From: a virus
Lineage: Duplodnaviria > Caudoviricetes
Length of the DNA stretch: 64,000 nucleotides
Reading direction: 5' to 3' (one strand)
Virus record (IMG/VR): IMGVR_UViG_3300028327_000538
Coordinates: 1 to 64,000 of that record
Each line of letters starts with the position of its first letter. Positions within the stretch are counted from its first letter, which is position 1. Position numbers and translations under genes: made by a program. Shown in pieces: positions 18,934-39,867 of this stretch. The notes below the pieces were generated by a model. The model searched no databases and was not told the origin of the DNA. It saw only the letters and a program-made list of their open reading frames with translations.

Positions 18934-18968
18934 CGCAAATTTTAGTGAGTTTTTGTTATAAACAATAT
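18934..18968 (+). promoter_or_regulatory. Bipartite phage promoter-like motif, copy 1
   Basis: CGCAAA-N11-TTTTGTTATAAACAATAT, then hairpin GAGGAATAA-ttg-TTATTCCTC and TAAGGAG RBS. Confidence 0.7.
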
Positions 18969-20559: not shown

Positions 20560-20569
20560 AGGAAAACAT

Positions 20570-23597: not shown

Positions 23598-23623
23598 AAT
23601 TATTACCGCCACGGAAGGTCGTA

Positions 23624-23725
23624 ATGGGAATAGTCGAAATCATAGGAAGTATTGTACTTTTCTTCGTGGTAAGAACACCCGAAGACGAAGAGGCAGTGCG
23701 CTTCTTCCGCAATATCTTCAAATAG
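23624..23725 (+). CDS. 33-aa hydrophobic peptide, copy 1
   Basis: MGIVEIIGSIVLFFVVRTPEDEEAVRFFRNIFK*; GGAAGG RBS; paralog at 39766..39867. Confidence 0.7.
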   Translation: MGIVEIIGSIVLFFVVRTPEDEEAVRFFRNIFK

Positions 23726-23838
23726 CCGTAAAGCTCCCCGCTGTCGTATGATACGCGGGGAGCTAACGGATCTTTTTTATAACTTGCTGGCATATATATG
23801 ATTATAGCATAATGGCTTAAACACAGAAAGGAAGGCGA

Positions 23839-24375
23839 ATGAGCATCAACTTTTTACCGACTCATCATATGGTTGAGGGCGCGATAAATATAAAACTGAT
23901 AAATATTAATCCAGAATACAATACTCTGCCTCTGGAAACGCCTTCAAGATCATATTATATTGAAAAAGAAACTCCTGAAAATCTAACTCCAATGGCGCAA
24001 TGGCTGGCTGACAATGTTCCCAACGCCACAAGGAACAGAGGTTTGTTTACAGTCAAGGTTATTGATGACACGCGGACGCAAGGCGACATCAACAGAGAAC
24101 AGAACGCAAGAACTCGTTGGGGATGGGGCCAGTATTTTAGCACCCCCGAACAGGCTCTTGAATCAACAGAAAAAATGATCAGAGCATATAACCTGGACGC
24201 GGAACCGGCTACAATAAAAGACTTCGACTTTCCTTTATACAATGGAGAGCCGGTAAGCGAATATTGGGAAAAAATCGCAAGCCATCTACAGTCGCAAGGG
24301 ACAACGAGAATTATAATAACAGACCATAATCAGAATAAGGTTTGCTACCCGCCCAGCAGCGAGCAACGCACATGA
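23839..24375 (+). CDS. Hypothetical protein
   Basis: AAGGAAGG RBS; 178 aa. Confidence 0.6.
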   Translation: MSINFLPTHHMVEGAINIKLININPEYNTLPLETPSRSYYIEKETPENLTPMAQWLADNVPNATRNRGLFTVKVIDDTRTQGDINREQNARTRWGWGQYFSTPEQALESTEKMIRAYNLDAEPATIKDFDFPLYNGEPVSEYWEKIASHLQSQGTTRIIITDHNQNKVCYPPSSEQRT

Positions 24376-24581
24376 ACATCAAATCAATCAAATTTGCCAT
24401 TAGGATTTACTGGAAAGAGATATTTGGAGACGATCCGTTTGTTCCTATAGTGATTGGGACTGCGATTGCCGCTACAATTTTAGGTGTAATTCTTTATAGG
24501 CTGTATGGACATCCATTTGACTATATTCTTGTTGGACTAGGTCTATTGGGGCTTGTTTACGCAAAGTGGGGAAAATACTAA
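24372..24581 (+). CDS. Small two-TM membrane protein (paralog of 53463..53687)
   Basis: KSIKFAIRIYWKEIFGD...YGHPFDYI. Confidence 0.7.
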   Translation: MNIKSIKFAIRIYWKEIFGDDPFVPIVIGTAIAATILGVILYRLYGHPFDYILVGLGLLGLVYAKWGKY

Positions 24582-24922
24582 CCGCATATTGTTTGTCGAG
24601 ACGGTTTCAGACTGTTTTCTTCTTCCTCTTCTCGTCGTCTTGCCTCTACAACGCCCTCAGAAAAACGATTACCTAAAGTGGCGGCGATTGTTGGCGGTAT
24701 GCCAACTTTGGCGCCTAACACCACTCCAACGCCAGACGCAAGAATGCCAGCGGCCAATAGAGCGTCTCTACGCTTTTTGCGTTTCTTCGCTTCGGCCATT
24801 TTTACCAAGAAATCGGCTACAACTATCTGTCGATCATATCTCTCAACTACACGTTGAGCCGCTATCTTGAGTAGCTCTCTTTCCCTAGGGCTGAGGTCGG
24901 CAAGTCTGAAACAATTGATCAT
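24578..24922 (-). CDS. K-x-A protein with basic patch and Gly-rich hydrophobic helix (paralog of 53671..54039)
   Basis: RLADLSPRER...VERY...LVKMAEAKKRKK. Confidence 0.7.
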   Translation of the reverse strand: MINCFRLADLSPRERELLKIAAQRVVERYDRQIVVADFLVKMAEAKKRKKRRDALLAAGILASGVGVVLGAKVGIPPTIAATLGNRFSEGVVEARRREEEEENSLKPSRQTICG

Positions 24923-24984
24923 AGATCAATTATCTCACAAAAGAGGCGGCAACGCTTCTTTTTAGCTATTAGAGGCAGTCTTTA

Positions 24985-25296
24985 TCAGCTTCTGCTCGCT
25001 CTTTTGAACATAGCCAAAATCCTGGCCCGGCTCTCATCGTCCTGAGCGGCTTCGCCTTGGCGCACGGCATCAGCAAAACTTTCACCAGGGCCTCTTCTTT
25101 TGTAAAATATGGCGTTCAGAATGTCCTGACCGTTACTAAGCCCCTCTACTATGGAACCTTCACACATCGCGTCCGCAAAGGTCTGGTCGGGGCGTCTGTA
25201 GGGTTTGTTGTCTGCACATCTGTCTCTTGACGCAGCATATCGATCATATCCCTGTTCAATTTGGAGGGCGAGTTCTTCTGGGATTGAATCAGTCAT
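24985..25296 (-). CDS. Hypothetical protein with an internal repeat
   Basis: RRPDQTFADAM / RRGPGESFADAV. Confidence 0.55.
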   Translation of the reverse strand: MTDSIPEELALQIEQGYDRYAASRDRCADNKPYRRPDQTFADAMCEGSIVEGLSNGQDILNAIFYKRRGPGESFADAVRQGEAAQDDESRARILAMFKRASRS

Positions 25297-25495
25297 TTGG
25301 ATGCCTCAAGCGTTCTATTACTCTTTTGTATTGACCATAGACAGATGGCTCGCGCCTGGACGCAAGGAGCTTGTCCAATTTTATTTCTTTGCCGGCATTA
25401 GGAGTGCGACTTTCCACCCATTCCAGATCGCTGGTGCTTTGTTCCAGTTGCTCTATACAGCTAAGAGATTTTATTTCTTCTGGGGTCAAAGTCAT
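25289..25495 (-). CDS. Small hypothetical protein
   Basis: AAGGA RBS; coupled to the next gene. Confidence 0.5.
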   Translation of the reverse strand: MTLTPEEIKSLSCIEQLEQSTSDLEWVESRTPNAGKEIKLDKLLASRREPSVYGQYKRVIERLRHPND

Positions 25496-25940
25496 CTTGT
25501 ATCCTTCAAATTACTTTCTTAAAGTTCAAATCTTTCAAACGAACCACCTATTTCGTTTAGAGCAGAGATAATTTGAGGGTTATTTACCGTCCTACGAAAA
25601 TCTTCAGGTTGCTGTTTGTCGTCGAGCAAATCTTTAATCTTATGCGAATCAAATATTTTAGGGTTTTTGCATATACGATAAATTACAGAAATCGCTAAAC
25701 ATATAGCATACACAAGCACTGCCATATAGAGATAAAAGACAATATCAATAATTCTAATTATCATTTCTCACCGCTCCGCTTTAATTGAAGTGATTTTCGC
25801 AACATTGCAGGGTTACTAATCCTTCGATTTTAGACAAAACTTCTATGACTGAGGCAATTTTCTCATCAACATAGGCATTTACTTTCACACAGACTGTCTT
25901 GTGCATATTTAACTAACACCAATACCATTAGTGTACATCA

Positions 25941-26561
25941 TCACACGTTCAACAAGGCTTCCATTGCTTCGGCATACCTGATCTTAATGTTAGGCTCTAT
26001 TTCCGTTAAATAATTAGCATATGAGGCTGCCTCGTCCTTGGTCATTAAGGGTTTTGTCGTAGGAGCTTCTCGCAGCGCCTCAAATATACTACATAAACTG
26101 AGGGGCTTGCGTTCTGTATCTTCGGAGTCCTCACCAGGGCCATCCCATTCTTTAAGATCATAAGTATAATCAACCAAGTCTTCCCAATCCCAGGCTCCGA
26201 AATAGTCATACACCTTAGCCATAGTCACCATTTCTTGATAGGCGAATAGGTTGAAATCACTGTCTTTTAACTCTCTGGTGAGTTTGAGATTGCCTTCATC
26301 GTCCTTTTTGCATATCCATAAATCCCATTCGGCTTGGTCTGCGGAATTTGCTATGCCCTCGAATAAGTCCAGCACTTTTTCGAGCGCCGGCCCTCGTTTC
26401 ATTGAGAGGTAAGAGTCATCGCTGATCGGAAACCTGTACGTAGCCAAAGCTCGTCTATCCGCCAGATACATCAGCTTCATAAGTTTGGCATGGTGCATTG
26501 AGCCGCCAGCGCGGTAGAGAAAGTAAGCCGCCATCTGTGCTACTTTGCGTACTTTATACAT
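25941..26561 (-). CDS. Panacea-domain (DUF4065/SocA-like) antitoxin
   Basis: AAYFL...KLMKLMYLADR...PISDDSY.SM..GP...EW; GGAGG RBS. Confidence 0.85.
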   Translation of the reverse strand: MYKVRKVAQMAAYFLYRAGGSMHHAKLMKLMYLADRRALATYRFPISDDSYLSMKRGPALEKVLDLFEGIANSADQAEWDLWICKKDDEGNLKLTRELKDSDFNLFAYQEMVTMAKVYDYFGAWDWEDLVDYTYDLKEWDGPGEDSEDTERKPLSLCSIFEALREAPTTKPLMTKDEAASYANYLTEIEPNIKIRYAEAMEALLNV

Positions 26562-26613
26562 TCTCTCCTCCTGTCTAAAACTATTTTATCAGTATGTAGA
26601 GAGGTTTTGAGGC

Positions 26614-27072
26614 TTAAATTATTTTCCCATTACCCGAAACAGCTTTATTCAATCTATCCAACATCATAAAGGTATAAAACATCTGTTTGGGACTGGTGTC
26701 GCGGTAGTAAAGACTATAAACAAACTCTTCCGTGAAACTATCGCTTATTCGTTCTATGTTAATATCCAACAAGCGCATAGCAAGCAAAAACGCAAAATAC
26801 TCATTAACTGTTATATATTTTGTGTGCTTTTGAAACGGTTGAATGGCTATTGGCTTTACTTTTGATAGCCAATAGACCAAAAACGCGGCCTGTTTATGTA
26901 ATTCAGAATTGTCGGAATCATGGAAAGTTTCAAAGCGCTCCAAGTCTTGTGCTAGTGATTCACTTGCAATGTCAACTAGGATAGGAACCATCCGCAAACC
27001 AGAATTTCTATCGCGTGTTCTGAAAATTTCAAACTGGTTGTATATCGTTGCGGCAATACTGGTAGCGTTCAT
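26614..27072 (-). CDS. Hypothetical protein upstream of the Panacea antitoxin (possible toxin)
   Basis: KQAAFLVYWLSKVKP...NEYFAFLL loosely recalls Doc/Fic helices but lacks HPFxDGN. Confidence 0.45.
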   Translation of the reverse strand: MNATSIAATIYNQFEIFRTRDRNSGLRMVPILVDIASESLAQDLERFETFHDSDNSELHKQAAFLVYWLSKVKPIAIQPFQKHTKYITVNEYFAFLLAMRLLDINIERISDSFTEEFVYSLYYRDTSPKQMFYTFMMLDRLNKAVSGNGKII

Positions 27073-27308
27073 TTATTGTCTGTCGAGTGTGGTTTGGACG
27101 CAAAAAGCCTGTTAAATTTTTTTACGCAGGCATCCATAAACTCAGGGGTCATTTCTAGCGACTCACGGGTGAGTTCCTTCCCTTTGTTTGGTCGAGTTTC
27201 CGCTCCCCAATTATTGTAGTCTGGACTTGCCCTCAACTCTTGAATCTCGGCTAAACATTCATCATAACTCTTTGGGTGGTCTTCTGCATCCATTGCCGTA
27301 TACCTCAA
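27069..27308 (-). CDS. Small hypothetical protein
   Basis: Coupled by ATGA overlap to 26614..27072. Confidence 0.5.
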   Translation of the reverse strand: MRYTAMDAEDHPKSYDECLAEIQELRASPDYNNWGAETRPNKGKELTRESLEMTPEFMDACVKKFNRLFASKPHSTDNK

Positions 27309-27467
27309 AATAGGTCAAGAATTATCTTACCCTAGATTTGTTTTTCTCGCCAATTTGTTCTGCTTATCCAATCAAGCATTCCAAATTTTAGCTGTTTGAC
27401 AAGCACAATGCAACAAATACTGCTCTCTATCCTGTGAGAGAACACATTTATGTTACTTCTACAAACA

Positions 27468-30400
27468 TTAATACCTCCCCTCACCGGAATCAGCAAGGTT
27501 TCCCGACACGAATGGGAGTACGGGATTGTAGCCGTGAATGTCGGATTTGTAACCGTAGGCGGCTCCTTCCTGCAGCCCTTTCTTGAGATAGCGGTATCCA
27601 AGGTGCGCGGCCCAATCACGGCTTTTGAGCGGCGCCTGTGTCACTCCCTCAAGGTGCGGCGTGTATGAAATGGGCTGGTGCATGGCTACTATCTTTTTGC
27701 CCTTCAGCTTCTGTATTTCATCCTCGCCAAGCCTCGTGCCCTTTTTGAAACCGGCGACGGGCTTGGCGAGAACCATTCCGTAAGCCTGTTCCGCCTGGAC
27801 GTTGTAGGGCTTCATGGCTTTTTGGTTCCATGTGTTTATCGTTGAGAGCGGGAGGACTTCGTTCATAACGGCTGTCGGGTTTGTTCCGGCGTCTGTTACC
27901 TGACCGAAGCCGGCCATGCCGCGCACTACTGTCTCTATGTTCCTGCGGTCGGTTTTGATGCCGGTGCCCTGATATAACTTTTGAAGCGTGGAGGAGATGA
28001 CATTGAGGCCCTTGTTGACGCCCAGGAGTTGCAGGGCCTGTTTGGGATGCGGCAGACCATGTGACAGCAGAGTTCCCTTTTCAACGGTGTCACCCGGTTT
28101 TACCAGGGGTTCCTTGTCGGTGAAGTGCTTGGTGTTGTCCACGAATATCTCGTATCCGCCCGCCGCGCCCTTGTTCACTTTTGTGACCCTGCCGTTGGTT
28201 GTCGCCATCGCCGCCTGTTGCTTGAATGTCTTGGGGGCTTGCAGGAACGAGGCTATGTCCTCGAATCCGCCGAACACACCGCCGCCGCCTGATGTCGTGC
28301 CGCCAAGGTGGAATGTCTTCATGGCGGCCTGTGTCAGAGGTTCCGATATGGCCTGTGCCGACTGGACGCCGATATTGTGGCCTATCTGGTAGAGGTTGCC
28401 CGTGCTGTCATGCCCCGCGCATTTCCGGCATATACCGTTGGCGGACTGGCAGGTGGCGGGCGACCTGACAATGACGGGCGCTTTTTTCTTAGCTATCTGG
28501 ACTGCCATCTCTTTTGTGATGAGCTTGCACTCCTTTGCGAGATAGCGTCCGGCCAGATACGGGTCGTCCGCCGGAAGTTCCAGCCCCTCTTTTGTCTTGC
28601 AGTCCTCCTGCGAGACAACGATGGACATTGACGTGTTGACTATCTCTTTGTTGAGGGCACCGGGCTTGCTCGTCATCAGTTGTTTGTCCAGTGAGCCTTT
28701 ACGCGCTCCGTAGAGCGTAGTCCAATAATCGGGGAAGCTCATGCCCTGGGCGTAATTCGACAGCACCGGACGTTCTATCGGCTTGCCGTCATGATCCTGC
28801 AAAATACCGGGGGCGTAGAGTATCTGTTTGACCTGCTCCGCCGACCCTCTGGCTCCGCTGGCTGCCATGACCACAAAGTTGTTGGTCTTGTCGTCAAGCG
28901 CCTGGGCTTTCACTTTCGCGTCGGCGGCCACCATCTGAGGAAGTGTCCTGGCTCCTTTGTAAGCCTGCGTGACAACGCCGCGGTCTGCCTCAAGGTCTTT
29001 GAGCGACAGTGAAAAGCCTACGTCCGTGGCGGCCTGGTCTCCGATACCCTTGATGGAAGTAACTATGCGGTTGTAGTATTCGGGGTATTTCTTCGCTATC
29101 TCCTCAAGGCGCTTCTCCACATCGGCCTTTGTGATGCCAGCCTTGAATTTGGATACGCGCTTGGGGAGCAGTTTGTTGATTTTACTGAGGCCGTCCTTGC
29201 TTTGGGACATGAGGTGCAGCCCCAGAATGGCCTCCTGATCAGGTGTGTAGTTGAGCCTGTTGTCTCTGGGGTTATAGAGGTTCTTGCTCGGCATCATTTC
29301 AAAGGCTTCTTTCCGGGCTGCTTCTGTGGCCGGAACATGAAGCGTCGCGGTGTCGCCATCAAAGTCCATGCTGAAGGGTTTGACTATAGTGCCGGGCACT
29401 TCGATTGACAGCCCCTTGGTCAGGGTTGGCTGAAAGCCCATGATGGAAAACTTATGCAGAGACGGCGCACGGTTCATCAATACCGGGCGATCAGACATGG
29501 CTGCTTCCAGGGACTTGCGGCCAATGTCGTCCAGCTCCTCAATATGCTTTTCGGCCTCTTTGTGGGCATAGCCAATGTTTTTGAGGTTCTTCATGGCAAA
29601 GGGCTTGTAGATTGTCTTTGCTATCTTTTCAGGTATTGCTATCTGATCCATGTTCAAATTGTTGTTCAGCACGACGGTTGCGCGTCCGGTGAGGTCGACC
29701 TGCTTTCGGACTACCTTTGACTGGAACATACCGCGCTTGGGGCTGCCCTCGCCGGTGATGATTCTTAGAGCGCCTTTCGCGCCCATCTTGCCTGTCTGCT
29801 CCGAAACCGGAGAGGCGACGCCCTGGATCGCGCCCAAACTCTGATACAGTGTCTGTGTCAGTTCAGGACTTTTAGTTCCGCTCTTGAGGGCTTCATTTGT
29901 CACGCCGAGATCGCGATACAGCATATTGAGCGACGAGACTTCCACGTTGCCGCTGGGAAGCTCGAAAGCCGGTCTGAACTGGGGCGGCATGACGGGGACA
30001 ACGCTTGTCATGTAGGCTTCTTTCGGCTTCATGCCGAGTTCTTCAAGGGCTTTAAGCAGCTTCAGCTCCTTTAGCATCGCTTCTTGTTTTGTCTTTGGGG
30101 CGGTCTTGATGCCCTTTGTGATCTGGTCAATCTTGCCTCTGACGTTGATGCCGGACAGCTTTTCGGATATTGCCTTGTGCCCGTCCTCGTCTTTTATGGC
30201 TTCCTGAAACTGTTTCTCAGTCATGCCAAGCAAGGTCTTTACCGGCGAGGCGAACATTGGGTTCACAATCGGATGCGCCAGTGTAATCTTCGACCACTTC
30301 TGCCCGTTTGAGCCGCCTGTCAGAAAGCGGTCAAAGAGTCCGCCCTTGATGGGGTTGCGTTTGTGGTCTAGCATCTTGAAGTTACGCAGCTCGTTTGTCC

Positions 30401-33392
30401 CCGCGTAATCAAGAGCGTCCTTGTCGGTCATGGGGGCCAGTATGCGCTTTGAGCCGTCCGTCCTTACGTTTACACCGGCGGCGTTAAGCGTGGCCTCAAA
30501 TTTGTTGTATATAAAGGGAACCTGCGGCTTGGGAAGCGGCAGGCCGTTTTCGAGGTTCTGCCAGTAATCCGCGTTCCCGTCGCCGCGGACAGTGGAAATC
30601 TCGCTGACGACATTGCGCTTGCCGTGGGAAAGCAGACTGTACAATGTCAGCGGGTCAACGGCCTTTGAGCCGTCCTCGCCGCCTTTGATTGGCTTGTTGT
30701 CCATGTCATACATTCCGACATCCCTGGCTGACACATTCGCTGTAGCGGTTTTGAACAGCTTCTGTATGACGGGCCTGCCGACAAGCACCTTGCCGTATTC
30801 TTTTTTGGTCACTGGGTCTATGAGCGTCTCGGTGTCTGAGATGCCGTGTTTCTTTAGGTCTGCCTTGACTTTTTCCAGGGACTTCTCGTCAAAGTTTTTG
30901 ACTAGGTAGGGCTTTCCCGTCTTTTCGGCTATCTTGCTCGCGGCGGTCTCAATGAGCTGGCCGGGGGTCATGCGTGTGATTACGCTGGCGGGTGAGATTA
31001 TCACCTCGGTGGACGCGCCGCCGGCTGTCTGGGGCATTTCTTTGTCGGCCACTATCGCGGTTATCACGCCCTTGTTGCCGTGACGCATTGAGAGTTTGTC
31101 GCCGACGATGGCGGGGGATTTGGTCTTTATGCTAACCTTGGCGTTGCTTCTGTTGACCGTGGCGGCGACTACCTCGCCGGGATTGAGCGCCGTCCATGTC
31201 TGCGAGGCGTCCTGGTATGGCTGCACAAGCGACCTGTGGAGGCGGTTGAACATCAGGTCTTCATTCGTGCCTGTGGTCTTTTGCAGCGTGAGAGCTGTCG
31301 GGTCTCCGGGTTCGAGGATAACGCCCGGTTTCGCCAGTCCGTTGTCGTCTATCTTTGCCAACTGCTCTTTTGTGTACTTTGTCGGGTACAGGGACATGAA
31401 CTTTTTCTTGTCTATTATAACGTCCTCGCCGTCTTTGGCGATATGAGTCTGAATCATGTGGTTGGACGTGAGCTTTTTGGCGGCTGTTTCTGAAACAACA
31501 ATGCCGTCCTCGAAATTCAATCCTTTCCAGGGCATGTAGGCCACTCTGAGATTGGAGCCGAGGGCCAGTGTGCCGTTCTTTGTGAAATTGGAATCCGCTA
31601 TCAGCTCGTCCTTTTTGAATTTCTGCCCGACTTGCAGCTTGTCTATGCCCTCGTGTGTTAGATAGGATTTGTTTTGCAGTTCAAAGTCTTTGTAGTAAGG
31701 TATTTTTATGTCGCCTTTGCTTGTAGAGAAGATGATATGTGACTTGCTTATCTGCTTAATGGAACCATTTTCGGGCGCTTTAATAGCAAAGCTGGCGTTT
31801 CCTGAGTTGGCTGTTAAGGATTCGATTGATTTTTCGCCCGCCAGCGAAGTTTGAACCAACGGGGCTTCCCTGTTTTCAAGGGATATTGCCTGGGCTATCT
31901 GCCTTGTAGCCATGCCGAGGCGATTGCCCTGGTCGTGGTGCTGAAGCGGTATAAACTGGCTGGCTATGCCAAAGGCTGAGGCTGTGTCGCGCAGTTGGTG
32001 CGTCACTTTGGCGGCGTCAATCTGCACCTGCTTGCCGCGGTGTATGGCCGTGACCTTGCCTTTGAGTTTCTGCTGGGGCAGTGCTATAACTTTGTCAAAA
32101 GCCTGAAGCGCGGAGAGTTCCTCAACCTTGTTGGTCTTGACGTTCTTGAATTTGGATACAATCTCATTGCCTCTTTTACTGGCGTCAACGGTCATATTGA
32201 GGACAACGCCGATCTTGTTGGACTCCGGCGTGTTCACGGGATCAAGGAAGCCAAGGTGCGTGGGGTGCAGGGCCTGGCTGTCGGGCATTATCGCTTCGGG
32301 ATTCTCTATGCCGCCCTCGCCTGTGATTGTGACCTTATCGTTGCCTTTGAGCATCGCTATTGGGTTTATCTGGCTTGGATTTTCTGAGAGCGCGGCGGAG
32401 TTGAAGAACGAGTTGATTGGTTTGCTGAAATACTGAGACGACACTATTTTTGTCAGGTCGTCGGACTTGCGGAGTCTGCTCGCGAGCTGATGGCGGATAC
32501 CGTTCTGGCTTCTCCTGAGCTTCTCGGTGACAAAATCCGGCGTTGAATGCAGTGTCTTAAATGCCAGGGCGTCGCGGTCGTCGGAGTCCTCTATCTTGCG
32601 GCTCACGTTCAGAACCTTTTCCAGGCCGCGGAGAATGAAACCGCCGTCAAGTCTGTCAAACTTCTTGCCCATCGTTATCTCTGTAACCTTGGGGTCGAGC
32701 TTGGCGTTCTTCATTGCCTCGGAGAGTTCCTGAGCCATTTCAGCGACGGACTTTTGTTCGGCGCCGATTGCGTATGGGTTGACCGAGCGGTAAAATCGCC
32801 TGATTTCATCGGACATCTTGGCGTCCGTCAGCTTTTCGGTATTGGCCTTATAGACATCGGCGCCAAATGTGCGCTTCATCTGCTCGTGCGATACGCCCAG
32901 GGCGGACAGAACCGGTATGGCGTTGATTTTGGCCTGATTCACATTGATGGAGAGGTTCTTTGTCTCAGGGTCTATGCCAAGCCTGATTTGCTTGAATCCG
33001 TCGGGATTGACGTGGGCCTCAATCTCGCCGTTCTGCTTGGTGCGGGAATAGAATCCGGGGCGGAGCCGCAACTGGTTGTTGATTTGATACTGGACGCCCT
33101 GCACCACGTACGTTCCGTCGCCGGTCTGCGTGGGGACCGTCGCCAGCTTCATTGTCTTGGTTTCTGTCTTGCCATTGGCCTGTGTAAATGTGACGTCGCC
33201 CATAATCGCCACGCCATAGGTCTTGTCCAGACGCTTGGCCCTGGAAATGGCGTGGTAATTGGTCGGGTCGGCGTTCTCGGTATTGGATACACGCAGGTTG
33301 GAGACGGTGAGTGTCTTGTCGCCCGATTTAATCGGGAATGTGCTTTTTATCTGGTTGATAACAGAATCAATCAATGGCTGGGTTTGGTTCAT
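27468..33392 (-). CDS. Phage DNA-directed RNA polymerase, fused beta + beta' (probably virion-packaged)
   Basis: beta: TPE..KIG, HHDQGNRLGM, AYMPWKGLNFEDGIVVSE, GDKLSMRHGNKGVI, RMTPGQLIE; beta': GGLFD, VPVMPPQFRP, RKQVDLTGR, NRAPSLH, DFDGD, SGARGS, GARKG, RSPATC..IC..C, AQAISEPLTQAAMKTFH. Confidence 0.97.
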   Translation of the reverse strand: MNQTQPLIDSVINQIKSTFPIKSGDKTLTVSNLRVSNTENADPTNYHAISRAKRLDKTYGVAIMGDVTFTQANGKTETKTMKLATVPTQTGDGTYVVQGVQYQINNQLRLRPGFYSRTKQNGEIEAHVNPDGFKQIRLGIDPETKNLSINVNQAKINAIPVLSALGVSHEQMKRTFGADVYKANTEKLTDAKMSDEIRRFYRSVNPYAIGAEQKSVAEMAQELSEAMKNAKLDPKVTEITMGKKFDRLDGGFILRGLEKVLNVSRKIEDSDDRDALAFKTLHSTPDFVTEKLRRSQNGIRHQLASRLRKSDDLTKIVSSQYFSKPINSFFNSAALSENPSQINPIAMLKGNDKVTITGEGGIENPEAIMPDSQALHPTHLGFLDPVNTPESNKIGVVLNMTVDASKRGNEIVSKFKNVKTNKVEELSALQAFDKVIALPQQKLKGKVTAIHRGKQVQIDAAKVTHQLRDTASAFGIASQFIPLQHHDQGNRLGMATRQIAQAISLENREAPLVQTSLAGEKSIESLTANSGNASFAIKAPENGSIKQISKSHIIFSTSKGDIKIPYYKDFELQNKSYLTHEGIDKLQVGQKFKKDELIADSNFTKNGTLALGSNLRVAYMPWKGLNFEDGIVVSETAAKKLTSNHMIQTHIAKDGEDVIIDKKKFMSLYPTKYTKEQLAKIDDNGLAKPGVILEPGDPTALTLQKTTGTNEDLMFNRLHRSLVQPYQDASQTWTALNPGEVVAATVNRSNAKVSIKTKSPAIVGDKLSMRHGNKGVITAIVADKEMPQTAGGASTEVIISPASVITRMTPGQLIETAASKIAEKTGKPYLVKNFDEKSLEKVKADLKKHGISDTETLIDPVTKKEYGKVLVGRPVIQKLFKTATANVSARDVGMYDMDNKPIKGGEDGSKAVDPLTLYSLLSHGKRNVVSEISTVRGDGNADYWQNLENGLPLPKPQVPFIYNKFEATLNAAGVNVRTDGSKRILAPMTDKDALDYAGTNELRNFKMLDHKRNPIKGGLFDRFLTGGSNGQKWSKITLAHPIVNPMFASPVKTLLGMTEKQFQEAIKDEDGHKAISEKLSGINVRGKIDQITKGIKTAPKTKQEAMLKELKLLKALEELGMKPKEAYMTSVVPVMPPQFRPAFELPSGNVEVSSLNMLYRDLGVTNEALKSGTKSPELTQTLYQSLGAIQGVASPVSEQTGKMGAKGALRIITGEGSPKRGMFQSKVVRKQVDLTGRATVVLNNNLNMDQIAIPEKIAKTIYKPFAMKNLKNIGYAHKEAEKHIEELDDIGRKSLEAAMSDRPVLMNRAPSLHKFSIMGFQPTLTKGLSIEVPGTIVKPFSMDFDGDTATLHVPATEAARKEAFEMMPSKNLYNPRDNRLNYTPDQEAILGLHLMSQSKDGLSKINKLLPKRVSKFKAGITKADVEKRLEEIAKKYPEYYNRIVTSIKGIGDQAATDVGFSLSLKDLEADRGVVTQAYKGARTLPQMVAADAKVKAQALDDKTNNFVVMAASGARGSAEQVKQILYAPGILQDHDGKPIERPVLSNYAQGMSFPDYWTTLYGARKGSLDKQLMTSKPGALNKEIVNTSMSIVVSQEDCKTKEGLELPADDPYLAGRYLAKECKLITKEMAVQIAKKKAPVIVRSPATCQSANGICRKCAGHDSTGNLYQIGHNIGVQSAQAISEPLTQAAMKTFHLGGTTSGGGGVFGGFEDIASFLQAPKTFKQQAAMATTNGRVTKVNKGAAGGYEIFVDNTKHFTDKEPLVKPGDTVEKGTLLSHGLPHPKQALQLLGVNKGLNVISSTLQKLYQGTGIKTDRRNIETVVRGMAGFGQVTDAGTNPTAVMNEVLPLSTINTWNQKAMKPYNVQAEQAYGMVLAKPVAGFKKGTRLGEDEIQKLKGKKIVAMHQPISYTPHLEGVTQAPLKSRDWAAHLGYRYLKKGLQEGAAYGYKSDIHGYNPVLPFVSGNLADSGEGRY

Positions 33393-33429
33393 ATATTAAT
33401 TTTAACACGCATTGATGTATAATATAGTT

Positions 33430-33871
33430 ATGCGCTATCCACAATCAAATCAGTTGCCTATACCTTTAACAGGGGGGGCTTCCAGAGGTCGATTGGGGCA
33501 GAAAGATAGTTTTTGGCAAATATATCCGAGGCGAGGCTGATAACGGATACTTTCCCAAAACATTTGCCGCAGATCAAAGCCGCTCTTGCCCCGTCTTCAA
33601 AGCCCCCGAAAACGGGCTGGTCATGTGTGTCTTCCACAACGACACAGTTAGTAGTTACATATCTTTTTCTTTTTATATAAACAGAGACAAAAACAATTTC
33701 GATTGGCGTGACCGCGTATGCGTCGCGCGCGCGGTTAAATCAGACTCCAAAAGCATATGGATACCAATCAACAAAGACGATGTGTTTAGCGTGGATATAT
33801 TTTCGTCCAACGCGATAACAGTGGACTGGCAACACGCCTTCGCTATGTTTTGGCCGTATAGGACAAGCTGA
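33430..33871 (+). pseudogene. Fibre-tip-like gene frameshifted at a G7 tract (candidate phase-OFF allele)
   Basis: MRYPQSNQLPIPLT-G7(33472-33478), then the +1 frame LPEVDW...DNGYFP...FKAPENGLV...IPINKDD...AFAMFWPYRTS*, homologous to 57613..58167; G6 or G9 restores the frame. Confidence 0.75.
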
Positions 33872-33874
33872 CAC

Positions 33875-33909
33875 CGCAAAAAATAAGGGCGTTTTGTTAT
33901 AAACACTAT
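33875..33909 (+). promoter_or_regulatory. Bipartite phage promoter-like motif, copy 2
   Basis: CGCAAA-N11-TTTTGTTATAAACACTAT. Confidence 0.65.
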
Positions 33910-33976
33910 TATTTTTAGCTATTGCTTGCAGGGGGGCAGTGCGGTAGAATATAAATACATATTAAAAGGAGAAAAT

Positions 33977-34813
33977 GTGATTACGAAGGTTGGAAATATT
34001 CTAAAAATTGCTGATATTTATCAGTTCAACACTAACTCTAGTGATGATTATTTAGAAGGTTATGATAGCTATGGCGGTAGAATATGGAAAAACAATAAAT
34101 ATCATAGCCCGAACTGGTCGCTACTTGCTAAAGAAGACCCAAGCGGCAAAGAATTAAATTTTGAACCGATTGAAAAATTCAAAAAAAACAAAAAAATATA
34201 TAACATGGCATCAAAATTAGTAAATGGCGCGTATTCGCCCTCATATTATGATCGCGTTCACGACGTGTATGCCATTAATTACGATGAGATTCCTCCTGGT
34301 GATACTCCTGTATTAATTAGGCCGTCTAATGATTCATCTAATGCTAAAAGTTCTGTGAAAGGAATAGTAAAAGGCGTTGCTCTAGGAGGGGTTAGCGGGG
34401 CAATTCTTGGCAGAGCGTTGTCCGGCAGTATTCGCGGCGCTGTTAGTGGCGCTGTTTCAGGTAGCATTCTTGGAGGAGGGATAGGCGCTCTCCACAAAAA
34501 AGCCAACGAGTTGTCCCGTAAAGAGCGCAGAGACGCTTTTGAGAGTAAAATATTAAATCCGCAAACGACTAAAGATTACGCAAGAACTTTTGGAATGTTC
34601 GGTGCAGGTATAGGTGCTGGGCAGTCACTCAAGAAGATAATTGAACACCGCAAAGAAATAGGCGAAATGACTCGACATTTACCAGGCGGAAGAAAGGCTG
34701 CTATTGTTGGTCTTGGTATCGACACCCTTGCAAATGCTGCGTTATTAGGCGGTATCGGTGCTGGTGTTGGCGCTGCTACCGGAACATTCATAAACAGAAA
34801 ACGTAAGACCTAA
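33977..34813 (+). CDS. Glycine-zipper cargo-like protein with (M)ITKVGNILKIA leader
   Basis: GTG 33977 after AAAGGAG; several GxxxG helices; HKKA. Confidence 0.7.
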   Translation: MITKVGNILKIADIYQFNTNSSDDYLEGYDSYGGRIWKNNKYHSPNWSLLAKEDPSGKELNFEPIEKFKKNKKIYNMASKLVNGAYSPSYYDRVHDVYAINYDEIPPGDTPVLIRPSNDSSNAKSSVKGIVKGVALGGVSGAILGRALSGSIRGAVSGAVSGSILGGGIGALHKKANELSRKERRDAFESKILNPQTTKDYARTFGMFGAGIGAGQSLKKIIEHRKEIGEMTRHLPGGRKAAIVGLGIDTLANAALLGGIGAGVGAATGTFINRKRKT

Positions 34814-34834
34814 TAATATTTTAAACAGTAAGGA

Positions 34835-36316
34835 TCATTGAGTTGGCAACTTTGCCGCTCTCTGTTCTAAAGCATCTAGCCTGACAACAAGACTTTTGAT
34901 TTCATCAATCTCTTTGTCTGCTATGCCGCTCCACAGTTTTGTGTGTTTATCCAAAATCATCCATTTGAGTGCAGGAACACCATTCCAAACAAGCCCCATC
35001 CAAGCTGGATAGTTGAGGGTAAGCGGGTTCCTGTTACTAGCGATAAACTTACCTGCGTTCACAGCAGCAAATGCGCCATATGCGATTGACAACATCACGC
35101 GAAAACGTGGGTTTAAGTTTAGTGGCAGAGTATCGTTCACTATGGTTTTACAAAAATCAGCATCATAAAAATATAGTTGCTTGGCGGCATATAGAACCCT
35201 CATAAGCACTTCCATAACGGTCACGGGAAAACTCATAGTTACAAAATGCCGAAAATCGTATCCATGAATATACATCCACTCAACTTGTGCGCCAAAAGTT
35301 GAATCGCTAACCGGAACAAATTCGACCATTCTTAGCAAAGACATAAATGGGACTGGTAGTCCCATGCCCCTATTACCCATTGCTGATGGAGCGTTCACAT
35401 CAGAAGCAAGATGTCCTAACATTAACCGCATTTGCGCCCAGGGTGAATTGTAGGGCATAGTTACCGCATCGCTCTTAAACCTCTGTAATTTACCATTATA
35501 CACTGCCGTAAGGGTATTGTTCTTCATATCCAACGGGCCGAATAAAAAGCCTAGTATCGGATCGTGTGAGAGGGCGCGAAGTCTGTGATTGGTGGGGCTA
35601 ACAACCTTACCCGGTGAACCAATTAGATTTTGACTAACTGATGTATCCGCCGATCCAATTTTGAAGCTGTTACTTAATTTGGCTGTCTTATCGGGAGGGA
35701 AGATTGCATTAAACATTTTTTGTGTTGCTTTGTTAAATGGGCCATTAACGGGCGTAGTAAACTTTGTTATGAAAGGCGTTGGCATACCAACGTAAAAAAA
35801 GTCCAATCCCCCGCCAATAATTCCGCATAAACCGGCTATAGCATAGTCATATACGTCCAAACCATAACGAGCATTAAAATCCTCGATAGACTTATCAATA
35901 CCTTGCTTGACAGCAGCAAGATCATCAATAGATAAAATGTCTTCTATCTTTACCTTATTAGGGTAACGTGCCTCAGCTTCAGCCAATATCTTTTCGGGTT
36001 CAATATAACATAACTGAATGCTTTGGCTCATTTCATCATATATTTTTTGTCTGCGTTCTTCTATTAATTTTGGCAATATATTTGTATTTTTGGTCAAGAC
36101 GGCTAATCGAGTCTTTAATTCTTTTATTTCTATGTCAATTTCATCATGAGATGACTCTATAGATTTTTGGCGCTCCTGTAGAAGTCGAATAGCCTTCATC
36201 GTTTTTTGGATTTCGGTATTATTCGACTTCTGTGACTTTTTGTTCTTTTGTTGTGCGTTACTTAAACTGCAACCACAAATTATAGATAGCGTTATGACGG
36301 TTATCAAAAACTTCAT
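34835..36316 (-). CDS. Putative lipoprotein/membrane protein with coiled coil
   Basis: MKFLITVITLSIICGC lipobox-like start; AT-rich moron; HRLRALSHDPILG. Confidence 0.6.
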   Translation of the reverse strand: MKFLITVITLSIICGCSLSNAQQKNKKSQKSNNTEIQKTMKAIRLLQERQKSIESSHDEIDIEIKELKTRLAVLTKNTNILPKLIEERRQKIYDEMSQSIQLCYIEPEKILAEAEARYPNKVKIEDILSIDDLAAVKQGIDKSIEDFNARYGLDVYDYAIAGLCGIIGGGLDFFYVGMPTPFITKFTTPVNGPFNKATQKMFNAIFPPDKTAKLSNSFKIGSADTSVSQNLIGSPGKVVSPTNHRLRALSHDPILGFLFGPLDMKNNTLTAVYNGKLQRFKSDAVTMPYNSPWAQMRLMLGHLASDVNAPSAMGNRGMGLPVPFMSLLRMVEFVPVSDSTFGAQVEWMYIHGYDFRHFVTMSFPVTVMEVLMRVLYAAKQLYFYDADFCKTIVNDTLPLNLNPRFRVMLSIAYGAFAAVNAGKFIASNRNPLTLNYPAWMGLVWNGVPALKWMILDKHTKLWSGIADKEIDEIKSLVVRLDALEQRAAKLPTQ

Positions 36317-36317
36317 A

Positions 36318-37280
36318 TTATTTTTGTGAAATCGCACGAGCTTCTAGCATAAATATTTGTCCTTTCAGGATAGCTATCTCATTTTTATAATATTCCGCAT
36401 TCGCAATTAAACGATCTTGTACGCTATACAACCGTGAAATCGCTACATTTAATGCGGCGGATAGTTTAGCCATTCTCTTCTTATCTTTGTAATAATCGTG
36501 CGCGATGTAAGCTCCACCTCCAAGAACAACAACTGGAATCACTACCACGCCCACGCCAGTTGCCATGCCACCACCAGCAATACTGCCAAGTGTCGCTAAC
36601 CCACTTGTAAGACCTGCGGCGGAAAGTCCATTGACCCCCGCAAACCATAACGCTGTATATGATATTGCTCCGCCTCCAACCAGCCCAGTAATTCCAGCTA
36701 AAGCGGTATCAAGACCAGGGGCAGACCTTTCGAGTTCTTGAAAAATAGCGAGAATCTTTTCGTTAGCCTCCTGAATTTCTGCCGAGACCTGTGCGCTATT
36801 TAGGGTGTCAGTCTTCCCTGATGCTAGAACCTGTAACCTAATCACTGCGGATGAGTTGCCATTCTTAGCCGCCATAGCATAGTATTTCGCTGCTTCTTGG
36901 CGATTTTTCCCTATCCCGTCCCCAAGATCGTACATCAAAGCCAATGAAAATTGTGCGGTCGGATGTCCTTTTTCAGCCGCTTTTTGATACCAGTAGGCAG
37001 CTTTTGGCTTGTTCTGTTGTGTCCCCTCGCCTTTCTCATACATAGCTCCAAGAGTGTACATTGCCATCAAATCGCCGTCTTCCGCGGCAAGCAAGCACTG
37101 TCCAAAGATTTCCTGTGGTGTGGGGTTGGGCGCTTCTTCTCCCTTTGAAGACTGTAGCTGTTCTTTAGTTTCTTTACTTTGTGCGCGAGAGCATCCCCAA
37201 TGACTACCAGCGCAACCAACACAAAGCAATAACGCGATTAGAGTTACAGAAACGCACGACTCAACTTTTCTTTTAGACAT
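36318..37280 (-). CDS. Exported Sel1-repeat protein with C-terminal Gly-rich membrane domain
   Basis: LLCVGC signal; AMYTLGAMYEKGEG..KAAYWYQKAAEKGH..AQFSLALMY; GGAGGAGAGG RBS. Confidence 0.8.
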   Translation of the reverse strand: MSKRKVESCVSVTLIALLLCVGCAGSHWGCSRAQSKETKEQLQSSKGEEAPNPTPQEIFGQCLLAAEDGDLMAMYTLGAMYEKGEGTQQNKPKAAYWYQKAAEKGHPTAQFSLALMYDLGDGIGKNRQEAAKYYAMAAKNGNSSAVIRLQVLASGKTDTLNSAQVSAEIQEANEKILAIFQELERSAPGLDTALAGITGLVGGGAISYTALWFAGVNGLSAAGLTSGLATLGSIAGGGMATGVGVVVIPVVVLGGGAYIAHDYYKDKKRMAKLSAALNVAISRLYSVQDRLIANAEYYKNEIAILKGQIFMLEARAISQK

Positions 37281-37293
37281 ACCTCTCCTCCTT

Positions 37294-37544
37294 ACCAAGA
37301 GACGTACATCCTACCAGAAATGCCTTATGTTTTCTCCCTGGATTGTTTCAGGGCGATCAGGATGGACGAGAGACCGGTCAGGAAAGCGGCGCCGTCGTCC
37401 AGCCATCCGACTACAGGAATGACATCCGGGATAAAGTCTACAGGAGAAACAATATATACCAGGCTGGCTATGGGGATTAAATATCTTGTGACGATTTTAC
37501 GCATGTCTCTCACCAAGAGACGTACATACTACCAGAAATGCCTT
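37294..37544 (-). repeat. 33-bp direct repeat (1 mismatch) flanking the DUF1232 gene; contains an extended -10
   Basis: ACCAAGAGACGTACAT(C/A)CTACCAGAAATGCCTT at 37294-37326 and 37512-37544; minus strand TGgTAG(G/T)AT. Confidence 0.85.
37325..37516 (-). CDS. DUF1232/YkvA family membrane protein
   Basis: YIVSPVDFIPDVIPVVGWLDD signature. Confidence 0.9.
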   Translation of the reverse strand: MVRDMRKIVTRYLIPIASLVYIVSPVDFIPDVIPVVGWLDDGAAFLTGLSSILIALKQSREKT

Positions 37545-37553
37545 GTATTTTCT

Positions 37554-37961
37554 TCACTTCTTTGTCACGAGAGACGCCATTATTGAGTCAATCCACGATT
37601 TAATACGATCTTCCGATTGTTTGAGCATGTCGAGTATTTCTTTTTGTGTTGGGATTTCTTTCATACGGTGTCCAATGCTTTCCAGTTTTGCCGTGAAAGC
37701 CCCGCGCATTTCCTTAATTTCAGAAATCGCTTCGTCGTGCGCTTTTAGCTTATCCCAAAGATCCTTGTTGCGCTTATCATCTCTCGCTTTTATTTCCAGT
37801 ATTTGCATCTCAAAGTGTTTCTTCTGCGCTTCAAGCTGAGACTCAAAGGATGCTTCCATTTTTTCCATAGCGCGTGAGTTAGAATTCCAAATATAGGCGG
37901 CAAATATGCCCAATAGACCAACCGCGCTGTTCATTATCCATTCGGTGTTAATCGTTGACAT
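37554..37961 (-). CDS. Single-TM coiled-coil protein of the lysis cassette
   Basis: N-terminal TM and coiled coil; follows the spanins. Confidence 0.5.
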   Translation of the reverse strand: MSTINTEWIMNSAVGLLGIFAAYIWNSNSRAMEKMEASFESQLEAQKKHFEMQILEIKARDDKRNKDLWDKLKAHDEAISEIKEMRGAFTAKLESIGHRMKEIPTQKEILDMLKQSEDRIKSWIDSIMASLVTKK

Positions 37962-38271
37962 TGTCTCTCCTTTGTTGTGTTTGTGTCTGGTTTAGATACG
38001 CCTTGAGACGTGTTTCCAGATCCAGCCCCCAGGCCGTAAGAAGTTCTCTGTCAGCGAGCAGTATCTTTGCGAGGTCTTGGATTGTGAGTTCTTTAAGGTC
38101 TTTGAGATTCGCGCTTGGCAGAAGCGGGCGCGGGGGTATGGTTGGTTCCGGTGCGGGGACGACTATGTATTCCCGGATTACCAGTGTTTCAGGCTTCGGC
38201 GCGGGAGGGCACGGTTTGACGCAACCGAGAACGCCAATAGCCAAACATATAATAGTTATCACGCTTTTCAT
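37948..38271 (-). CDS. o-spanin (Rz1-like lipoprotein)
   Basis: Lipobox VLGC, Pro-rich mature part, directly after the i-spanin. Confidence 0.7.
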   Translation of the reverse strand: MKSVITIICLAIGVLGCVKPCPPAPKPETLVIREYIVVPAPEPTIPPRPLLPSANLKDLKELTIQDLAKILLADRELLTAWGLDLETRLKAYLNQTQTQQRRDNVND

Positions 38272-38280
38272 ATCTATCCC

Positions 38281-38652
38281 CTAATTGGGCGCCAGACGAT
38301 TGACTACAACTTGAGCTTCGGCAACGGCCCAGGCTATAAACTCTTCCGCGTCGTCTGATACGGGCTTGTCTAAGATTGCCTGCGCGTGCAGTTCGCCTTT
38401 GACGCGATGCGTGGCGGCTATAACGGCGGCGTTTGAGATTGCTTCGGACTGCGATTTGGCGTCGGCTTTTATACTCTCTATCAGTTCGGCTTGAGGAACA
38501 ACGAGGCGGGCCAGTTGGTCTTTTTCGGCCTGTAGTTTCCCAATCTCGGAGTTTAGTCCGGCTATGGTTTTGTCCTGTTTGCTGGTGCGCCGTGCGCTCA
38601 CAACCACAATGGTTATGAGAATGACAATTAGAAGCAGCCATATTTTATTCAT
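38281..38652 (-). CDS. i-spanin (Rz-like)
   Basis: N-terminal TM anchor followed by a coiled coil. Confidence 0.65.
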   Translation of the reverse strand: MNKIWLLLIVILITIVVVSARRTSKQDKTIAGLNSEIGKLQAEKDQLARLVVPQAELIESIKADAKSQSEAISNAAVIAATHRVKGELHAQAILDKPVSDDAEEFIAWAVAEAQVVVNRLAPN

Positions 38653-38891
38653 TTTTTACCCGACTCTGCCAACATAGTAAGCATCCCATTGCATTGCGCT
38701 TTGTATATATCGCGTTCTTCTTTCAGATTTTCGTTTTCTCGCCGCAAACTTATGATTTGAAGCTCAAGCTGCTCTGCTCTTGCTTTTATCTCTTCGAGCG
38801 CCCGCGCTTTAACTAAAAGTTCGCAGACAAATCTGTTGTGTCTGTTACGAAACATCCAAAGGCTATCCATTATCCATCTCAAAAATTTCAT
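38649..38891 (-). CDS. Coiled-coil hypothetical protein
   Basis: Coupled within the lysis operon. Confidence 0.5.
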   Translation of the reverse strand: MKFLRWIMDSLWMFRNRHNRFVCELLVKARALEEIKARAEQLELQIISLRRENENLKEERDIYKAQCNGMLTMLAESGKK

Positions 38892-39256
38892 TGTTCTTTT
38901 GCCTCAGCAAAGTTACCTGCCGTAAGCATTCCAAAAGAGCCAATAATAATAAAAGTAGCAAAATCTCTAAGAGGGCCGTTTATTTCAAACCACAATCCCA
39001 AAATACACAATACAGCCCCCAAAAGAAAAGCGAAGAAAGCAATCATCCGCTTAGTGCTTGGAGCGTTTGGACGTTCACAAAGTCCTCTTAAAACAAATGG
39101 AATAATACCAGGGGGCAAAGAGGGCCATTCTTCTTTAGAGTGAGCCTCCTCTTCTTCTTTAATAATTTCCTTTGGAGGATTATTTAAGGCGTCCTCCAAA
39201 GGCGGAAGAAAGGCGAAATCATCCCCTTCCGTTTTCTTTTTATCCTGGCGTTTCAT
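38888..39256 (-). CDS. Putative holin (2 TM)
   Basis: PSTKRMIAFFAFLLG...two TMDs; first gene of the spanin operon; leaderless promoter. Confidence 0.55.
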   Translation of the reverse strand: MKRQDKKKTEGDDFAFLPPLEDALNNPPKEIIKEEEEAHSKEEWPSLPPGIIPFVLRGLCERPNAPSTKRMIAFFAFLLGAVLCILGLWFEINGPLRDFATFIIIGSFGMLTAGNFAEAKEQ

Positions 39257-39282
39257 ATGGTTTATTATAGCACGGCTATACC

Positions 39283-39317
39283 CGCAAAAACACTGGATAT
39301 TTTGTTATAAACATTAT
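39283..39317 (+). promoter_or_regulatory. Bipartite phage promoter-like motif, copy 3
   Basis: CGCAAA-N11-TTTTGTTATAAACATTAT, then GGGAA..TTCCC hairpin and TAAGGAGG RBS. Confidence 0.7.
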
Positions 39318-39356
39318 GAGGGAATAATAACTTTCCCCATTTTATAAGGAGGTTTT

Positions 39357-39707
39357 ATGCAAAAATCCAATAACGAACTGGTTCACGAGATTGTCCACGA
39401 ATTTGAACAATCCTGCGATAACCTGAATCGCGCTATTGATTTCGCGTTGACGTCGTTTGCCGAGAAGCTCGACGAAATGCACATTGACAGCAATGATGTG
39501 CAGGAAATCAAAAACATTCTGTCCACCCAGACAAGCGCGCTCCTGAAAATCGTCAAACTCGGCGACTACAGCAACGTGCCGGACAGAGAGGAACTGATTG
39601 CGCTGACGACGGAAGCAAAGGGTCTGGCGACATCGTTCAAAGACATGACGCGCTTATGCCGAATCGGCATGAAAGCCCTGGTTCACTTCGTCAAAACGCA
39701 GTTCTGA
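39357..39707 (+). CDS. Monocistronic helical early-like protein
   Basis: Perfect RBS; own promoter motif and terminator. Confidence 0.7.
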   Translation: MQKSNNELVHEIVHEFEQSCDNLNRAIDFALTSFAEKLDEMHIDSNDVQEIKNILSTQTSALLKIVKLGDYSNVPDREELIALTTEAKGLATSFKDMTRLCRIGMKALVHFVKTQF

Positions 39708-39717
39708 AGCAAAACAA

Positions 39718-39745
39718 AGGCCGCCAACATTGGCGGCCTGTTCTG
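39718..39745 (+). terminator. Hairpin terminator
   Basis: AGGCCGCCAA-ca-TTGGCGGCCT followed by GTTCTGTT. Confidence 0.65.
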
Positions 39746-39765
39746 TTGTTCCTAAGAGATTTTGA

Positions 39766-39867
39766 CTATTTGAAGATACTACGGAAGAAGCGCACTGCCT
39801 CTTCGTCTTCGGGTGTTCTTACCACGAAGAAAAGTATTATGCTTCCTACTATTTCGACTATTCCCAT
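39766..39867 (-). CDS. 33-aa hydrophobic peptide, copy 2
   Basis: MGIVEIVGSIILFFVVRTPEDEEAVRFFRSIFK*; GGAG RBS. Confidence 0.7.
   Translation of the reverse strand: MGIVEIVGSIILFFVVRTPEDEEAVRFFRSIFK

Follow-up and report, generated by a model that had tools for sequence, protein, structure and literature searches.

We analyzed a 64,000-nt stretch of DNA (positions 1 to 64,000, hereafter the window) of IMG/VR record IMGVR_UViG_3300028327_000538, a single virus record (Caudoviricetes) of 96,165 bp with 46% G+C, of which the window is a part. The window contains two inverted copies of a 33-codon open reading frame (ORF), and, judging from the sequence, this repeated ORF is very probably a real gene. 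On balance, the evidence somewhat favors the view that both copies are genuine, translated genes, which would encode a 33-residue protein of a new orphan family, predicted to be helical and membrane-associated. By their sequence, the paralogs constitute two independent small transcription and translation units, each with its own Shine-Dalgarno (SD) motif and its own terminator, and only the ORF is common to both.

The inverted repeat and its reading frame

The repeat search delineated two arms of 103 nt, 23623-23725 on the plus strand and 39766-39868 on the minus strand, which are 93% complementary and lie 16,040 nt apart. The original prediction had described an inverted duplication of 102 bp with similarity from ATG to TAG and seven differences, and it was correct in each of these respects. 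The two ORFs, as obtained from the repeat and its translation, are:

23624..23725, plus strand: copy 1, 33-codon ORF from ATG to TAG
39766..39867, minus strand: copy 2, 33-codon ORF from ATG to TAG

When the copies were aligned with 60-nt flanks, identity was random until 1 nt before the ATG and random again directly past the TAG. Such ORF-exact limits are rare: among 192,124 random 103-nt windows of the genome, only 76 (4e-4) are spanned to within 2 nt by an ORF from ATG to stop. Within the entire 96,165-bp record, blastn and tblastn retrieved only these two copies, and tblastn of the peptides against the GenBank phages retrieved none. The proteins adjoining copy 1 and those adjoining copy 2 are not paralogs of each other.

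The copies differ at ORF nucleotides 18, 19, 27, 30, 31, 87 and 89, and four of these seven differences are synonymous, whereas the other three are conservative replacements (I/V, V/I and N/S). Given 21 synonymous and 78 nonsynonymous sites, the ratio of nonsynonymous to synonymous substitution rates (dN/dS) is 0.18, and the probability of at least four synonymous changes among seven is 0.043 (one-sided). The sense frame has the best synonymous/nonsynonymous ratio of the six frames and is the only one with a 4 + 3 partition. A codon-usage log-odds score trained on the long ORFs of the phage was +7.6 for copy 1 and +7.2 for copy 2 in the sense frame, compared with 7.2 +/- 5.2 for true-frame windows of phage genes. 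The exact reverse-complement frame scored equally high, given that Phe codons are mirrored by Glu codons, but it would have undergone five mostly radical amino-acid changes. Both 33-amino-acid (aa) ORFs have been gene-called publicly on other, shorter contigs, and the exact copy 2 protein has been gene-called on a separate 10.6-kb contig of the Joint Genome Institute (JGI). Taken together, the ORF-exact limits, the frame ratio, the gene-like codon usage, the individual SD motifs and terminators and an outside homolog of the same length (both described below) support the earlier proposal of a duplicated protein-coding gene that is kept by selection.

The seven differences are unevenly distributed. 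The central 55 nt are free of changes (longest-run P 0.027) despite about 12 synonymous sites, compared with four changes in about nine such sites of the outer codons. The restriction of identity to the ORF is best explained by purifying selection on the protein together with gene conversion between the paralogs, that is, by concerted evolution, and the 55-nt core would then be a conversion tract. The paralogs tufA and tufB are held alike by gene conversion. As in tufA/tufB, near-identity is confined to the coding sequence, the flanks are unrelated and the orientation is inverted; unlike in tufA/tufB, the repeated sequence has 102 nt rather than 1.2 kb, and conversion is deduced here from the change-free core.

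The genome also contains other old paralog pairs, and the peptide pair is by far the most similar. The small proteins encoded at 24578-24922 and 53671-54039 (both on the minus strand) are paralogs with 36-39% identity and a transmembrane (TM)-like segment. Outside of the window, at 75680-77124 of the record, two divergent, adjoining ORFs have a 17-residue stretch in common with 94% identity, which represents another short inverted similarity.

The contigs of three termite-gut DNA runs, at low depth, contained no variant in either copy. Strain variation was seen elsewhere in the window, in a 152-aa gene: public contigs of two termite-gut runs carry a cluster of substitutions at 26687-26905, and one public termite-gut contig skips 104 nt (26738-26843) of the same gene.

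The outside homolog and the predicted protein

An exhaustive profile search of 1.84 billion (1.84e9) representative proteins yielded two matches beyond the query's own cluster. One sequence found in this search, with E 9.8e-5, was P0005, a 45-aa singleton from a 1,408-nt JGI metagenome contig. In BLASTP, residues 13-45 of P0005 align without gaps with residues 1-33 of the copies, with 18 and 20 of the 33 positions being identical (55-61%); Met13 falls on Met1, and the C-terminal end is the same. For composition-matched sequences, the chance of 20/33 identity is 8e-14 per alignment. At their end, the 12 additional residues at the N-terminus of P0005 resemble the 5' region of copy 2 when this is read in frame, including the codon that forms its GGAG. 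This resemblance hints that P0005 really starts at Met13.

Invariant in all three sequences are M1, G2, I3, V4, I6, S9, L12, F13, F14, V15, E20, D21, E23, A24, F27, F28, I31 and F32. In terms of the predicted structure, the three sequences agree in helix 1, in the acidic turn and on the hydrophobic face of the second helix (A24, V/M25, F27, F28, I31 and F32), and the polar face varies. By contrast, R17, T18, P19, R26, R29 and K33 are not kept. As R17, R26, R29 and K33 are not conserved in P0005, a basic tail is no family feature. The earlier description of a hydrophobic N-terminal half, an acidic linker and an amphipathic, basic tail therefore fits both phage copies, but its basic residues do not extend to the homolog.

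No further family member was found in word-based searches with P0005, with the alignment of the three sequences or with the 116-aa neighbor of copy 2. The peptides had no match in Pfam or NCBIfam (E<=10), PHROGs or PADLOC, and none in a sequence search of the PDB; Rfam gave none at the gathering score and, at E<=10, only terminator-type noise. In the ESM Atlas, the best score was 0.75, to an unnamed cluster, with no named cluster, and was not usable. The two copies are best described as paralogs of a new orphan family of small, probably membrane-associated phage proteins, with three known members if P0005 is counted.

Several other candidates were rejected. The Sel1-repeat protein P0004 matched only via its repeated 11-residue motif, and the peptide has no match among the Sel1 proteins of the phage itself. 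These phage proteins are encoded at window positions 36318-37298 (minus strand) and 20516-21052 (plus strand), the larger of them with an N-terminus like that of a lipoprotein and with a C-terminal part that is hydrophobic and rich in Gly. Scans of viral, metagenome and genome contigs with degenerate DNA patterns gave only chance matches within unrelated ORFs; the pattern for the metagenome contigs required Pro19 and a basic residue and thus excludes P0005. One match in a viral contig was a Panacea-domain protein, again by chance. The window itself encodes a SocA/Panacea-domain protein (25941-26561, minus strand; Pfam E 3e-18), the antitoxin-type domain of PanAT pairs. Small unknown genes surround its gene, including one (25519-25764) with a TM-like segment at the N-terminus, and the Panacea protein contains no motif resembling the 33-aa peptide.

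AlphaFold2 predicted a helix at residues 3-17, a turn at 18-21 and a second helix at 22-32, with a mean predicted local distance difference test (pLDDT) score of 80. Residues 2-16 form the most hydrophobic 15-mer (Kyte-Doolittle 2.6), 11-12 of these 15 residues belonging to the IVLFCMA set, and the best 19-mer reaches 1.7-1.8. The hydrophobic moment of helix 2 is 0.86-0.89 in the two copies vs 0.53 in P0005, the two copies have a net charge of -1, compared with -5 in the core of P0005, and a homo-oligomer prediction with four copies scored 0.02. The predicted protein fits a short, membrane-embedded helix combined with an amphipathic helix at the surface. It would fold as a helix-turn-helix hairpin, with the short, very hydrophobic N-terminal helix (residues 2-16) in the cytoplasmic membrane of the host, and the acidic turn would remain at the membrane surface together with the C-terminal helix, which is strongly amphipathic. 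In this position, the peptide would perturb the membrane or tune a membrane protein during infection.

Expression signals and the opposite strand

The following signals were found around the two copies:

23573..23600, plus strand: candidate sigma-70-type promoter of copy 1, TTGAGT-16-CATAAT (9/12, consensus match only)
23613..23618, plus strand: SD-like GGAAGG, 5 nt before the ATG of copy 1 (from the sequence)
23726..23778, plus strand: terminator-like hairpin directly past the stop of copy 1, with a core stem at 23732-23764 and T6 at 23773-23778 (fold)
39903..39933, minus strand: 12-bp stem-loop in the 5' region of copy 2 (fold)
39874..39877, minus strand: SD-like GGAG, 6 nt before the ATG of copy 2 (from the sequence)
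39708..39739, minus strand: intrinsic terminator after copy 2, with a 9-bp GC-rich stem and a T-run (terminator scan and fold)
40095..40116, minus strand: terminator of the upstream 734-aa operon, which sets this operon apart from the copy 2 unit (terminator scan)

These signals are located in non-homologous flanks and are therefore independent at the two loci. The original prediction had proposed a ribosome-binding site for both copies. Each has indeed an SD core of 4 nt, but the support is only moderate, given that SD cores of at least 4 nt precede 47% of the long-ORF starts and also 17% of random positions in this genome. The predicted stem-loop upstream of copy 2 was recovered. The candidate promoter of copy 1 overlaps the start codon of the divergent 562-aa gene. 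The hairpin after copy 1 (23726-23769) is strong and was missed by the simple terminator scan because of its long loop; the fold has a z-score of -3.8 for the whole unit. The terminator of copy 2, a canonical one at 39739-39718, is bidirectional and common to the convergent 116-aa gene. Spacing to the neighboring genes is tight: copy 1 is 26 nt from the divergent ATG at 23597 and 113 nt from the next gene, and copy 2 is 58 nt from the stop of the 116-aa gene. Copy 2 would be a stand-alone unit behind an operon terminator. Between that terminator (40116-40095) and copy 2 lies a 22-codon ORF (39989-40057, minus strand) with a GTG start and a strong AGGAGGT SD motif.

On the opposite strand, the following features are relevant:

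23791..23809, minus strand: extended -10 promoter TGCTATAAT (23809-23801), followed by 7 nt and the ATG at 23793-23791, a leaderless start that faces copy 1 (motif scan)
Window 5989, 17149, 23809, 33407, 39272, 45043 and 58183, all minus strand: TGNTANAAT-N6/7-ATG sites (motif scan)
23590..23793, minus strand: 67-codon ORF antisense to copy 1 (ORF list and motif scan)
21909..23597, minus strand: 562-aa gene, divergent from copy 1, the mRNA of which would carry copy 1 antisense (domain scans; public gene calls use the ATG at 23597)
39656..39871, plus strand: 71-aa ORF antisense to copy 2 (ORF list)

The minus-strand promoter at about 23801, which had been postulated to place copy 1 antisense within a transcript, was confirmed as TGCTATAAT, and copy 1 would indeed be antisense in that transcript. 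The motif TGNTANAAT occurs 19 times in the genome, and in seven cases an ATG is present at +6 or +7, compared with about 0.6 expected. Six of these ATGs open ORFs of 95 to 1974 aa, including the genes for an RNA polymerase (RNAP) and for a 393-aa structural protein, and the seventh opens the 67-codon ORF. A leaderless transcript crossing copy 1 in the antisense direction is therefore likely. The stop of the 67-codon ORF overlaps the ATG (23597) of the 562-aa gene, which has no SD motif, and the 67-codon ORF may serve that gene either as a leaderless upstream ORF or as its 5' leader; the transcript may even be translated and feed ribosomes to the 562-aa gene. Copy 1 would face this extended -10 promoter at a distance of about 187 nt, and therefore the copy 1 mRNA and the leader of the 562-aa operon would be fully complementary. 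Another motif, CGCAAA-N13-TTGTTATAAA, has three occurrences in the window (18934-18962, 33875-33903 and 39283-39311, all on the plus strand) vs 0 expected in shuffled sequences. Each precedes a plus-strand gene, and the motif is a candidate phage-specific promoter or operator.

The RNAP gene lies between the two copies. Its 1974-aa ORF (27468-33392, minus strand) comprises Rpb2 (beta) and Rpb1 (beta') domains in one chain and thus specifies a single-chain enzyme, with the nearest phage matches being only about 30% identical (Vibrio phages of about 187 kb). Domain scans of the window proteins also identified the gene for the large terminase subunit (17349-18938). No close relative of the phage was found in IMG/VR via the neighboring proteins or the RNAP, and megablast of the region gave no match. 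According to a sequencing-run search, two termite-gut metagenome DNA runs, from two studies, contain the phage sequence.

Alternative readings

Several points weigh against two translated genes for a membrane-associated protein. With only seven differences, the selection test is weak. Of the two antisense frames that remain open throughout the repeat, the one that shares third positions with the sense frame is free of stops in both copies and has just three amino-acid changes as well, and therefore the substitution pattern alone cannot choose the strand. The identity in the center could reflect RNA hairpins, in which Phe and Glu codons pair (UUCUUC/GAAGA). The homology of P0005 is one of proteins only. 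A hydrophobic helix of about 15 residues is short for spanning a bilayer. The 96-kb record's own gene calls apparently lack the peptides, and there was no RNA run among the sequencing runs found to contain the phage.

The original prediction offered two functional labels, type I toxin-like and membrane-regulatory microprotein. We consider the latter more likely than the former, and the label of toxin is unproven for this peptide. A module resembling type I toxin-antitoxin systems would consist of a predicted membrane-depolarizing toxin and of the leaderless transcript from 23809 across copy 1 as its antisense repressor. The toxin criterion of Fozo et al. is a length of less than 70 aa and a TM-like stretch with at least 10 of 15 residues being I, V, L, F, C, M or A (PMC2887945), and the peptide conforms to their protein criteria in its size, its TM-like stretch and its polar or aromatic C-terminus. 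Like the type I toxins (Fst/Ldr, Hok, TisB, Ibs, ZorO and SprA1), it has fewer than 50 residues, with a hydrophobic helix followed by a charged/aromatic tail. Type I toxin genes often occur in several copies and overlap with an antisense transcript; here, the gene is present more than once, and the well-supported face-to-face promoter would lead to such an overlap at copy 1. The transcript from 23809 would also be 93% complementary to the copy 2 mRNA.

However, the likeness does not extend beyond size and hydrophobicity to family, antitoxin RNA, untranslated regions (UTRs) or spacing. The peptide has no sequence homology with type I toxins, no type I toxin model of Pfam or NCBIfam (Fst/Ldr, Hok, TisB, Ibs, ShoB and others) matching at E<=10, and there was no antitoxin RNA in Rfam and no match in PADLOC. 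Duplicated type I loci have their UTRs and their small RNA (sRNA) gene in common (PMC2887945), whereas the two phage copies lie 16 kb apart in inverted orientation and are alike in the ORF only, so that their similarity takes in neither UTRs nor any antisense RNA gene and they have no antitoxin RNA in common. As for antisense RNA, a transcript is predicted at copy 1, but copy 2 is without an antisense promoter, and in place of a dedicated, conserved antisense sRNA the only predicted transcript is the mRNA of the 562-aa operon. The leader of copy 1 has only about 17 nt, without a long fold that would sequester the SD motif, and the spacing criteria for type I loci ask for at least 400 nt upstream and at least 250 nt downstream (PMC2887945), more than the tightly spaced phage copies have. 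Furthermore, the basic tail is unconserved in P0005, and the pair belongs to a phage with its own RNAP. A type I module is therefore unlikely.

In bacteria, regulators of the AcrZ, MgrB, MgtS, KdpF and SgrT type are small membrane proteins. The peptide resembles them in having a single short hydrophobic helix, in its size (they have about 30-50 aa), in being missed by standard annotation and in its narrow taxonomic range; it differs from them in the lack of homology, in its strongly amphipathic second helix and in being phage-encoded and present twice. According to catalogues of microbiome small proteins, genes of this kind are common, and most of them remain unstudied (PMC11364881; bioRxiv 10.1101/494179).

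An alternative is that the conserved unit works as an RNA and that the ORF is incidental, either with the copy 2 RNA and the 562-aa leader (the antisense of copy 1) pairing over 103 nt and regulating each other or as a structured hairpin element. As the copies are inverted, transcripts in the same direction are complementary, which would give 93% complementarity between the copy 2 mRNA and the leader predicted for the 562-aa mRNA. The ORF RNA of both copies is predicted to fold into two hairpins within an outer stem, which contains five of the seven differences, including a G-C to A-U double change (pair 31/87) and one wobble pair, and the synonymous changes avoid the central 55 nt. However, the z-scores of the folds are only -2.3 and -1.9, two of the five outer-stem changes break pairs, and Rfam has no match. 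An RNA element gives no reason for an identity that begins at the ATG and ends at the TAG, and the outside homolog was found as a protein, with a conserved hydrophobic and a variable polar face. We regard an RNA function with an incidental ORF as improbable.

A leader-peptide attenuator does not hold for copy 2. Like pheL, the copies are small, Phe-rich ORFs with a terminator directly after them, and copy 1 has a gene downstream. Unlike in pheL, copy 2 has only a convergent gene downstream, the Phe codons do not form a run, and the terminators of the two copies are unrelated, with no common antiterminator alternative. The Rfam Phe_leader matches at the copy 2 terminator are weak, with 21 bits vs a gathering score of 55.

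The possibilities of protein and RNA function can also be combined. In a two-locus sense/antisense circuit, the copy 2 mRNA, besides encoding the peptide, would serve in trans as antisense RNA (103 nt) to the leaderless leader of the 562-aa operon, a leader that would also be the cis-antisense of copy 1. If this were true, peptide and operon output would repress each other and time the infection, and the phage would have a dual-function mRNA pair in addition to its own single-chain RNAP. Such a circuit is highly unlikely in our estimation.

Equally poor prospects are assigned to a recent, functionless duplication or recombination scar, or to a pair of recombination sites by which the RNAP-bearing segment of 16 kb would be inverted. 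Between the inverted arms lie 16 kb, and the 55-nt perfect stretch would permit homologous recombination. The ORF-exact limits, the functional flanks and the outside homolog are at variance with this proposal, and there is no target-site duplication at the outer ends. In addition, no inversion joint was present in the contigs of the three runs (about 3-5x depth, and hence weak), and no recombinase was recognized among the scanned proteins of the segment.

Last, the selected frame might be on the other strand, in which case the repeat would code for the C-terminal part both of a 67-aa protein with a leaderless start (23793..23590) and of the 71-aa ORF (39656..39871). In favor of this frame are its three amino-acid changes in two open copies, the start of the 67-aa ORF 7 nt past TGCTATAAT, as for six confirmed genes, and, in line with translational coupling, the overlap of its stop with the start codon of the SD-less 562-aa gene. 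Several observations nevertheless assign the selected feature to the sense strand: the limits of similarity coincide with the sense start and stop and with no antisense landmark, and the antisense product is a low-complexity sequence in which K, S and T abound, has codon scores of -2.3 and -2.6, and is found in no protein collection. The antisense ORFs have never been gene-called publicly, and the 67-codon ORF is absent from a collection of 15 billion proteins and finds no match in the PHROGs. The antisense ORF at copy 2 lacks credibility, because it starts within the SD-led 116-aa gene without an SD motif of its own and crosses the shared terminator. Selection on this other strand is thus the least likely of the explanations.

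The favored reading, therefore, is that of two translated genes for a small membrane-associated protein, with the two loci as two regulatory inputs that the phage could use for the same peptide. Small phage proteins are mostly unannotated, and several of those that have been studied act on host membranes or enzymes. The practical value is modest: the peptide is a candidate for expression, localization and toxicity assays and a marker for relatives of this phage. Here, sequence evidence alone, in the combination of ORF-exact paralogs, independent expression signals and an outside homolog, makes it possible to argue that an ORF below the customary cut-offs is real. In an uncultured phage lineage with a fused beta-beta' RNAP, the pair would offer a compact case both of concerted evolution and of face-to-face transcription with a leaderless promoter.

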